Shown: positions 61,521-62,573 of the stretch, in pieces
How positions within the stretch are numbered: position 1 is the first letter of the stretch
How the letters are laid out: each line of letters begins with the position of its first letter
Origin: Escherichia coli O127:H6 str. E2348/69
Lineage (GTDB): Bacteria > Pseudomonadota > Gammaproteobacteria > Enterobacterales > Enterobacteriaceae
Length of the DNA stretch: 64,000 nucleotides
Assembly (NCBI RefSeq): GCF_000026545.1
Contig: NC_011601.1
Direction: 5' to 3' (one strand)
Notes under the pieces: model-generated
Databases searched by the model: none
Seen by the model: only the letters and a program-made list of their open reading frames with translations
What the model was told of the DNA's origin: nothing
Made by a program: the position numbers and the translations under genes

Positions 61521-62573
61521 TCAAATTCTCGCCAAAACACTTTTTAATGCCTTTGCGAATTCATCCAGACTTATATTGTCAATTTTTTGCCCAACGATGA
61601 CTGACTCCGAAACATCGGCCATTGCGGGCCATCGCGTTTTGTAATCAGCATAAATTGCAACAACAGGGGTATTATAGGCACTTGCCATATGTAATATTGA
61701 GGTGTCAGGAGTTATTGCAATATAAGCATCTTTTATGATTGCTGCTGAACGTTTAATCGAGGGTGATAAGGATAAACGGTAGACATTATTATAACAATCC
61801 ACTAATGCCCTGGCTTTATCTTCCCCTTTGGGTCCATAAACGATCACTATTGGCATATCTGTTTCACTTTGAATTTTTGCTATTAGATTTTCTGCAATCG
61901 ATAATGAAAATGTACGTTCCTGCGAGCTACCTTCTAAATTGAGCGCAATGTAAGATCCTAACGATCGCATTTCCTCGCGTACCTCATCGAGTACATCATC
62001 GCTTAATGGCAATTCATATATTGACCTGACTGCCGGAAAACCCGCCTCACGCATCATAAATGCCCATGTCATGGGTACAGGAGCCCGGAGATTCTGATCC
62101 ATCCGGGACGCGTTATTACACAAAGGGGAATAGCACTTCATGGTTAAACCGACGACCTGGAAATTCGTTTTTGCTTTCAACTGACTGATAAATATCATCG
62201 TTTTCAGGTTCTTTTTACGCATCGCCTCTATACAAAGATCCGGCGTACCGTATTGCAGTGTTATGTTCTTCGCTAAATCTTTTATTTCTTTTAATATTGC
62301 GTGATCCTGCATAGTCATTGTGACTAATGTTAATTTAGTCTGTTCAAGTTTGAGCACATTAAAGACTTCTAAATTAATTGTCGACGTAACAATTAATAGA
62401 TGCTTAATTTTATGCAATTCAAGCGCCCGAATAACAGGAAAGATGGCCATAGCATCGCCAATCTGATCGGGAATATGTATGACAACAAAGTCTGTTTTTT
62501 CAATATTAAAATTATAAGCTTTATAATCGTAGTAACTAAATGCAATACGTCTCAACAATGATACTAAAAACAT
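61521..62573 (-). CDS. yeeL: GT9-like (heptosyltransferase-family) glycosyltransferase YeeL, apparently intact (350 aa)
   Basis: Track ORF trimmed to MFLVSLLRRIAFSYYDYKAYNF... with GGAGG 7 nt upstream of the ATG; AT-rich gene; K-12 yeeL is a split pseudogene. Confidence 0.75.
   Translation of the reverse strand: MFLVSLLRRIAFSYYDYKAYNFNIEKTDFVVIHIPDQIGDAMAIFPVIRALELHKIKHLLIVTSTINLEVFNVLKLEQTKLTLVTMTMQDHAILKEIKDLAKNITLQYGTPDLCIEAMRKKNLKTMIFISQLKAKTNFQVVGLTMKCYSPLCNNASRMDQNLRAPVPMTWAFMMREAGFPAVRSIYELPLSDDVLDEVREEMRSLGSYIALNLEGSSQERTFSLSIAENLIAKIQSETDMPIVIVYGPKGEDKARALVDCYNNVYRLSLSPSIKRSAAIIKDAYIAITPDTSILHMASAYNTPVVAIYADYKTRWPAMADVSESVIVGQKIDNISLDEFAKALKSVLARI

Follow-up and report, generated by a model that had tools for sequence, protein, structure and literature searches.

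The gene yeeL of Escherichia coli encodes a protein annotated as a member of glycosyltransferase family 9 (GT9) and lies beside yeeJ, the gene of an inverse autotransporter adhesin. In the 64,000-nt stretch of E. coli O127:H6 str. E2348/69 that we analyzed (contig NC_011601.1; hereafter the window), yeeL is intact and yeeJ is a remnant. A first-pass annotation of the window proposed that YeeL is an adhesin-modifying heptosyltransferase comparable to the enzymes of the AAH/AIDA-I and TibC/TibA pairs. The analyses below do not bear this out, whether one considers the modules that define the bacterial autotransporter heptosyltransferases (BAHT), co-transcription or co-occurrence across genomes. 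We consider it very probable that yeeL is a bona fide GT9 enzyme gene that is unrelated to yeeJ. The explanation that we favour, to which we give a probability of roughly 0.55 as a whole, is that YeeL is an accessory GT9 enzyme that would act on the lipopolysaccharide (LPS) core or another lipid-linked glycan independently of YeeJ.

The intact form of yeeL

yeeL was found at positions 61521-62573 of the minus strand as a single open reading frame (ORF) of 350 codons running from ATG to TGA. A mechanical list of ORFs also contained a longer TTG-started frame (371 aa, reaching 62636); we take the ATG at 62573 as the true start because all homologues begin at this MFL/MSL position. The sequence GAGGT precedes the ATG by 5 nt. 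The product matches the RefSeq protein WP_000480510.1 ("glycosyltransferase family 9 protein") at 100% identity, and the DNA is also 100% identical in E. coli RM14723. The frame, the GAGGT motif and the RefSeq match all agree with the first-pass identification of this gene as an intact 350-codon yeeL with a good ribosome-binding site. Its reported AT-richness was recovered as well, with a GC content of 38.4% (35.9% at third codon positions) against 49.2% in the remaining window.

Using megablast, we detected yeeL DNA in 5267 of 5426 complete E. coli genomes (about 97%), and the gene was present at 80% length coverage or more in 4939 of them (>91%), in all lineages. In K-12-derived genomes and in BL21, the same 1053-nt gene is a pseudogene through one internal stop at Q235 (CAA to TAA). 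yeeL had been described as a split pseudogene in K-12; it is indeed a pseudogene there, but it is interrupted by this single nonsense codon (Q235*) and not split by a frameshift. Based on a 33-nt probe in which each 28-mer seed spans codon 235, the TAA allele was identified in 769 genomes, many of which are laboratory derivatives of K-12 or B, and the CAA allele in at least 3591 genomes. Further inactivations consist of IS1 insertions and of large clusters of partial Shigella sonnei proteins. The ORF was intact in 12 of the 15 scorable genomes of the sample described below. Intact yeeL is the majority state in E. coli, and the copy in the window, a catalogued gene in its wild-type form, is ordinary rather than special.

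Because the gene is already catalogued and thousands of genomes carry its annotation as a GT9 protein, it offers little that is new as a discovery. Its distribution has a consequence for laboratory work: about 97% of complete E. coli genomes have this glycosyltransferase gene, and the K-12-derived and BL21 genomes share one nonsense codon in it, so that YeeL, whatever its target, would be missing from most of the envelope biochemistry conducted on those strains. A modest practical use follows for these two backgrounds, which are without a functional copy of a near-universal envelope-type glycosyltransferase of E. coli.

Family, fold and predicted active site

YeeL scored 29.9 bits against the Pfam GT9 model PF01075 (gathering score of 22), with an alignment limited to residues 232-320. 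The NCBIfam equivalog models of heptosyltransferases I, II and III were all missed by YeeL (TIGR02193, 39.4 vs. 185.3; TIGR02195, 19.5 vs. 134.6; TIGR02201, 16.4 vs. 170.2), and its scores against the RfaC, RfaF and RfaQ PRK models were 13-14 for cutoffs of 437-569. On these profiles, YeeL is a divergent GT9 protein and not the orthologue of a known core enzyme.

An AlphaFold2 model built from a 20-sequence family alignment (predicted local distance difference test, 86.5; predicted TM-score, 0.83) presented two alternating beta/alpha Rossmann-like domains. In a structure comparison, this model scored highest with a GT9 protein of Veillonella (3tov, 24.3), followed by WaaF (1psw, 21.3), WaaC (2h1f, 20.8) and the plant GT9-like protein PnsB1 (7wff, 20.6). 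The first fold outside GT9 was that of UDP-GlcNAc 2-epimerase (1v4v, 14.3), and TibC (4rap) scored 14.1; the Foldseek ranking was the same and placed TibC outside the top 50. The first-pass annotation had proposed a profile search and a structure prediction as checks of the family assignment, and both came out in its favour: the GT9 threshold was passed and a GT9/GT-B fold was predicted, so that the refuting outcome, absence of this fold, did not occur.

Sequence searches of the PDB pointed in the same direction. The YeeL sequence alone matched WaaF only (E = 1.4) and the family profile was needed to reach WaaC; with this profile, WaaC was retrieved at E = 3.5e-4 and WaaF at E = 0.02, and TibC was not retrieved among PDB sequences at E ≤ 10. 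The profile alignment pairs R220 of YeeL with K192 of WaaC, and D290-T291-S292..H295 with D261-T262-G263..H266. These YeeL residues, which make up a conserved donor-site motif, were invariant across 20 family members, as was G39-D40. G39-D40 follows the strand 29-34, at a place that corresponds by topology to that of the catalytic aspartate (D13 in WaaC, D110 in TibC).

The comparison with WaaC (HepI) and WaaF (HepII), which belong to CAZy family GT9 (PDB 2H1F/2GT1 and 1PSW), reveals both similarities and differences. YeeL is close to them in size (350 vs. 320-348 aa) and shares the C-terminal donor motif D-T-S/G..H, a basic residue at the position of WaaC K192, an invariant GD right after the first beta-strand and a basic N-terminal domain. 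The isoelectric point of this N-terminal (acceptor) domain is 9.5 in YeeL and that of the C-terminal domain is 4.8. In contrast, YeeL is only 11-13% identical to these enzymes, has R instead of K at the phosphate-binding position, matches the Pfam model over residues 232-320 only and scores 13-39 bits against equivalog models whose cutoffs are 135-569. Its family further presents an additional, conserved helix of about 27 residues at the N-terminus, as well as near-invariant cysteines at positions 114, 147 and 152. Unlike the core genes, yeeL is an AT-rich orphan outside the waa locus, non-essential and lost in K-12 and B. The Veillonella parvula protein (3TOV) is 14% identical to YeeL; it has no assigned function itself, and the match is therefore silent on the acceptor of YeeL.

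Relationship between yeeL and the adhesin gene yeeJ

If the adhesin hypothesis held, YeeL would O-glycosylate the YeeJ passenger in the cytoplasm ahead of its export, in the manner of AAH with AIDA-I and of TibC with TibA. The adjacency of the two genes in E. coli and the GT9-like GT-B fold of YeeL, which resembles the BAHT catalytic core, speak for this, as do the genomes that have both genes intact, and BAHT enzymes (TibC and AAH; PDB 4RAP/4RB4) use ADP-heptose and are encoded beside their adhesin gene. However, BAHT enzymes are defined by an N-terminal beta-barrel (residues 1-97 of TibC), a beta-hairpin thumb, an iron finger of four cysteines located in a C-lobe insertion (C339, C342, C358 and C370 in TibC) and a dodecameric ring, and all four features are needed for activity (PMC4358343). 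The YeeL model lacks the barrel, since it starts with a helix (residues 2-13) that is followed by the first Rossmann strand (29-34), and no inserted strand pair corresponding to the thumb was found in the secondary structure of its C-lobe. The iron finger is absent too: the cysteines of YeeL are found only at positions 114, 147, 152 and 260, with none after 260 and no CxxC. YeeL has 350 residues, whereas the residue numbering of TibC extends to 406. The family profile detected no sequence similarity between BAHT enzymes and YeeL; their likeness is that of generic GT-B proteins, and WaaC and WaaF are nearer both by structure and by sequence.

The substrates differ as well. BAHT enzymes modify beta-helical passengers, which the iron finger grips along the helix (PMC4358343), whereas the YeeJ passenger consists, according to the YeeJ literature, of immunoglobulin (Ig)-like Big_1 repeats. 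Surface display of YeeJ and its promotion of biofilms have been demonstrated in MG1655 (PMC5595812), which belongs to K-12; the nonsense codon of yeeL is present in K-12-derived genomes. Neither of two papers on YeeJ mentions yeeL or glycosylation.

Genome organization argues against a partnership in the same way. yeeJ (plus strand) and yeeL (minus strand) are convergent and not co-transcribed, yeeL being divergent from shiA, and the two genes are evolutionarily unlinked. Full-length K-12-type yeeJ DNA was found in 1665 of the 5426 genomes (about 31%), consistent with the published share of intact yeeJ of 35-40% (PMC5595812 and a second YeeJ paper), against more than 91% for yeeL. yeeL is kept where yeeJ is deleted (the window, NC101, A33, AR_0006 and EC958) and is broken where yeeJ is intact (K-12 derivatives and BL21). 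We scored intactness from RefSeq pseudogene flags in 17 genomes taken at even steps down the yeeL identity ranking. Two were set aside as ambiguous: EC13 has an insertion sequence element at the 3' end of yeeJ, and GZ2408P presents frameshifts in shiA too, which suggests an assembly error. Among the 15 scorable genomes, both genes were intact in five (2009C-3378, KE58, EH09-18-41, STLEFF_29 and 100248), yeeL only in seven, yeeJ only in two (a K-12 derivative and BL21) and neither in one (TOK-001). The resulting odds ratio was 0.36 (Fisher's exact test, p = 0.57) in this small and phylogenetically non-independent sample. The co-occurrence of intact yeeL with intact yeeJ that the first-pass annotation had suggested verifying therefore exists as individual pairs (5/15) but not as a positive association. 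Finally, no adhesin was found next to the YeeL orthologues in eight loci outside typical E. coli.

These results indicate that the adhesin hypothesis is already largely refuted, the BAHT analogy failing on each defining feature testable here, and we consider glycosylation of YeeJ by such a mechanism extremely improbable. The proximity of yeeL and yeeJ reflects the position of both genes beside the asnT hotspot and not a functional partnership. It is also very unlikely that YeeL belongs to a GT9 subfamily of protein O-glycosyltransferases without the BAHT architecture that modify YeeJ or another surface protein encoded elsewhere; if it did, such glycosylation would have gone unseen in laboratory strains because K-12 and B have lost the gene.

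Orthologues, distant relatives and origin

Orthologues of YeeL with 52-72% identity were found in E. albertii, an Escherichia-like lineage, Pseudocitrobacter, Erwinia, Rosenbergiella and one further genus. Each is a single-gene islet, located at a different locus in each genus (Table 1), and no adhesin or autotransporter gene adjoined them in the eight loci mentioned above. In both E. coli and Pseudocitrobacter, shiA neighbours yeeL in divergent orientation, a conserved arrangement. In most enterobacterial hosts, the GC content of the homologue is 6-17 points under that of its flanks, and this difference, along with a different site in each genus, upholds the horizontal origin that had been suspected from composition.

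An exhaustive profile search further identified distant full-length relatives: P0108 from Carnimonas bestiolae (E = 3e-80), the metagenomic P0109 (E = 2e-74) and P0134 (E = 3.5e-34). The clusters of P0108 and P0109 contain genes for WaaL-like Wzy_C, GT4, GT2 and Bac_transf proteins, as expected of loci of the LPS-core or O-antigen type, and that of P0108 additionally contains a second GT9 gene and WecG. P0134 is a predicted protein of 777 aa in which Wzy_C is fused to a full-length YeeL-like GT9 domain (positions 1955-4288 of L025, a contig of Logan SRR5023860). It is either a true fusion or the merging of two genes by gene calling or sequencing error. All three match the YeeL family profile over their full length, but they are less than 50% identical to YeeL and are embedded in LPS-type clusters, whereas the orthologues of Enterobacterales are always single-gene islets.

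Several observations touch on possible vehicles of transfer. The homologue of Erwinia aphidicola is located on the opposite strand between a tail-tube gene and tail-fibre fragments of a prophage, 17 GC points under its flanks, and it resembles either a moron or an insertion into a prophage that has degraded. We did not retain a phage-moron origin for yeeL in general, since two other Erwinia hold the homologue at unrelated non-phage loci; a tblastn search of YeeL against 50,697 phage genomes yielded no match. One PHROGs family of unknown function (phrog_27389) matches YeeL end to end (748 bits). It was not counted as a sign of phage origin because its most likely source is a prophage prediction extended too far, into the asnT region of the chromosome. 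The high-identity matches to yeeL filed as plasmids were chromosome-sized or chimeric records and were discarded; true plasmid GT9 genes are about 24% identical. A gene of the major facilitator superfamily (MFS) lies directly upstream of the homologue on the same strand in Rosenbergiella and Erwinia persicina and, as shiA, in divergent orientation in E. coli and Pseudocitrobacter (8674-9846 in locus L004, 6636-7841 in L032, 8479-9789 in L006 and 62888-64000 in the window). We treated this neighbourhood as a coincidence because the type of transporter and its orientation differ. Lastly, an nr entry labelled as a glutathione transporter of Rattus norvegicus (P0076) shares 74% identity with YeeL across 88% of its length and almost certainly represents bacterial contamination of a rat data set.

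Selection and allele variation

Across 11 E. coli alleles, the ratio of non-synonymous to synonymous polymorphism (pN/pS) was 0.22 for yeeL, versus 0.05 for shiA, 0.03 for yeeN and 0.01 for amn. Selection on yeeL is purifying but weak. The allele of the window differs from that of NC101 by seven non-synonymous and no synonymous changes. More broadly, 7-10 non-synonymous and 0-1 synonymous differences separate it from the B2-type alleles of NC101, A33 and AR_0006, whereas, for the same pairs of genomes, the counts in the adjacent shiA are 16-34 synonymous and 1-3 non-synonymous. This contrast could result from relaxed or diversifying selection or from differing recombination histories.

The substitutions private to the window (T93I, K153N and I240M) affect positions that are variable across the YeeL family. 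Codon 246 encodes Tyr in B2-type yeeL and His in all non-B2 E. coli alleles, within the motif IVIVHGPKG. Singleton changes at family-invariant sites were observed in AR_0006 (T221I and R275H), 33-6 (N67H) and MRSN346647 (G142D). Because weak selection, changes at invariant sites and recurrent inactivations (Q235*, IS1 and the partial proteins of Shigella sonnei) combine, yeeL is best described as an accessory gene that is dispensable and is being lost from some lineages.

Acceptor and role of YeeL

We propose that yeeL arrived by horizontal transfer as an AT-rich islet of one gene beside shiA and that most E. coli have kept it intact. Its product would be a cytoplasmic stand-alone glycosyltransferase of the GT9 family with a GT-B fold. 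The donor is most likely of the ADP-heptose type, and YeeL would most likely decorate a membrane-bound anionic lipid-linked glycan, the LPS core being the leading candidate, as a non-essential accessory modification made independently of YeeJ. The family, the fold, the conserved donor-site motif, the distribution in the population and the absence of linkage with yeeJ are results of the analysis; the donor sugar, the LPS acceptor and the activity of the enzyme in this strain are what we infer. An accessory transferase of LPS or lipid-linked glycans is our best guess because the distant relatives lie in LPS-core or O-antigen-type clusters. Their context is the only positive evidence on the acceptor, and the basic N-terminal (acceptor) domain may be taken as a hint at a membrane or LPS acceptor. 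We see an even chance that YeeL has LPS or another lipid-linked glycan as its acceptor. A narrower proposal, which we hold only tentatively, is that YeeL adds to the LPS core, in natural isolates of E. coli, a non-stoichiometric and so far unassigned residue that was overlooked since the gene is lost in K-12 and B.

A functional lead comes from a transposon-directed insertion-site sequencing (TraDIS) screen for hypermotility in EC958, a strain of sequence type 131, where Tn5 insertions in yeeL are listed as enriched at the periphery of swim plates (log fold change, 7.46), yeeL being one of 30 genes (PMC5425062). yeeL is intact in EC958 and yeeJ is a truncated remnant behind the high-pathogenicity island (HPI); the motility effect, if real, is therefore not YeeJ-dependent. 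In the literature retrieved with yeeL as a whole word, the term was mostly a personal name or an entry in lists of integration sites in the K-12 pseudogene, and this table entry was the only functional lead.

A number of points weigh against an accessory enzyme of the LPS core. The donor and the acceptor are both assigned by inference. yeeL is located outside the waa (rfa) locus, between the yeeJ remnant and shiA, and at unrelated loci in other genera. To our knowledge, the waa genes already account for all linkages of the five E. coli core types. Every NCBIfam heptosyltransferase equivalog model scores YeeL far under its cutoff, and the LPS-cluster context belongs to relatives that are less than 50% identical while the orthologues of YeeL are always orphans. 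The flanking genes are under selection 4-20 times stronger than that on yeeL, and the B2-type alleles, including that of the window, carry H246Y at a position that is His in 17 of 17 homologues compared from other lineages. The TraDIS entry is given without individual validation in the portion of the text consulted (PMC5425062).

The main rival explanation is that yeeL is a dispensable gene drifting toward loss, that is, an intact-looking relic that is silenced or drifting in E. coli and has no present role in this strain. The elevated pN/pS relative to shiA, amn and yeeN in the same genomes, the excess of non-synonymous differences from NC101, the repeated inactivations and the substitutions at family-invariant sites in several alleles (H246Y among them, with T221I, R275H, N67H and G142D) are all consistent with it, as is the silencing by H-NS that AT-rich genes of foreign origin typically undergo in E. 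coli. On the other hand, pN/pS is still far below 1, the gene is kept at high coverage in the 4939 genomes of all lineages, the changes private to the window fall at family-variable positions, the catalytic motifs are intact and insertions have a phenotype in the TraDIS screen of EC958. We consider such a relic rather unlikely. It appears less likely still that YeeL is an active GT9 enzyme with an acceptor other than LPS, such as another envelope glycan (enterobacterial common antigen or capsule), a small molecule or a non-adjacent protein. The orphan location outside waa, the varying and uninformative neighbourhoods, the failure of every LPS heptosyltransferase equivalog model, the extra N-terminal helix and the near-invariant cysteines would all fit such an enzyme, but the nearest structures are LPS heptosyltransferases, the distant relatives and the fusion protein associate with WaaL-like ligases and core-type clusters, and the acceptor domain is basic. 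We thus retain the accessory GT9 enzyme acting on the LPS core or a lipid-linked glycan as the favoured explanation.

Features surrounding yeeL

The coordinates of the features around yeeL and the positions of its homologues are summarized in Table 1. Gene coordinates from RM14723 were transferred to the window with an offset of +52520, which was checked.

Table 1. Features of the yeeL region of the window and genomic locations of yeeL homologues in other lineages.
Feature	Position	Strand	Basis or context
tRNA-Asn (asnT), integration hotspot	60086-60161	plus	ARAGORN
yeeJ remnant	60471-61305	plus	blastn against the K-12-type locus, fragmented ORFs, RM14723 annotation
yeeL coding sequence	61521-62573	minus	350 codons + TGA; divergent GT9-family GT-B glycosyltransferase
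Divergent yeeL(-)/shiA(+) intergenic region	62574-62887		314 bp; coordinates carried over from RM14723
yeeL ribosome-binding region	62579-62590	minus	Direct read: GGGAGG 62590-62585; GAGGT 62583-62579
shiA (shikimate transporter), 5' part, runs off the window end	62888-64000	plus	RM14723 gene coordinates
yeeL homologue, Pseudocitrobacter			amn-shiA-yeeL-mtfA; no yeeJ whatsoever
yeeL homologue, Escherichia-like lineage			Between hchA and mtfA
yeeL homologue, E. albertii			Between a tonB-like gene and yciA
yeeL homologue, further genus			Between maeB and the eut operon
yeeL homologue, Rosenbergiella			After an MFS gene
yeeL homologue, Erwinia persicina			After an MFS gene
yeeL homologue, Erwinia sp. 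S43			Among unrelated genes
yeeL homologue, Erwinia aphidicola (CP188307.1)	10001-11134 of locus L003		Inside the tail module of a P2-like prophage

The yeeL promoter is presumed to be located within the intergenic region; a consensus scan for promoters and terminators around yeeL returned sites no more numerous than in shuffled sequence. As the first-pass annotation had stated, the neighbouring adhesin gene is decayed, and only an internal fragment of yeeJ is left in the window. This remnant of approximately 835 nt matches nt 5844-6692 of K-12 yeeJ at 90.6% identity with broken frames, and it has lost the start codon, the LysM domain, the beta-barrel, most Ig repeats and the C-terminus. RefSeq annotates it as a pseudogene at 60466-61360 of the window and, in the near-identical RM14723, as a frameshifted partial pseudogene.

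The remnant is bounded by two deletions in the region 60162-61520. Of the asnT-yeeJ spacer, everything up to position -2 relative to the start codon of yeeJ remains and is joined straight to nt 5844 of the gene, an oddly precise deletion, and the second deletion extends from nt 6693 to about 110 nt beyond the stop codon. The usual B2 remnant differs: it measures about 2.4 kb and is accompanied by the HPI inserted at asnT, as observed in NC101, A33, AR_0006 and EC958. The role of asnT as a hotspot beside yeeJ has also been discussed previously (PMC5595812).

The window follows RM14723 almost exactly from tRNA-Ser (serU) onward (about 52521-59000 of the window against 1-6480 of the RM14723 stretch). 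The two genomes diverge upstream of serU, where RM14723 presents Rac-like prophage genes and a frameshifted integrase and the window presents zinT-like and other sequence.

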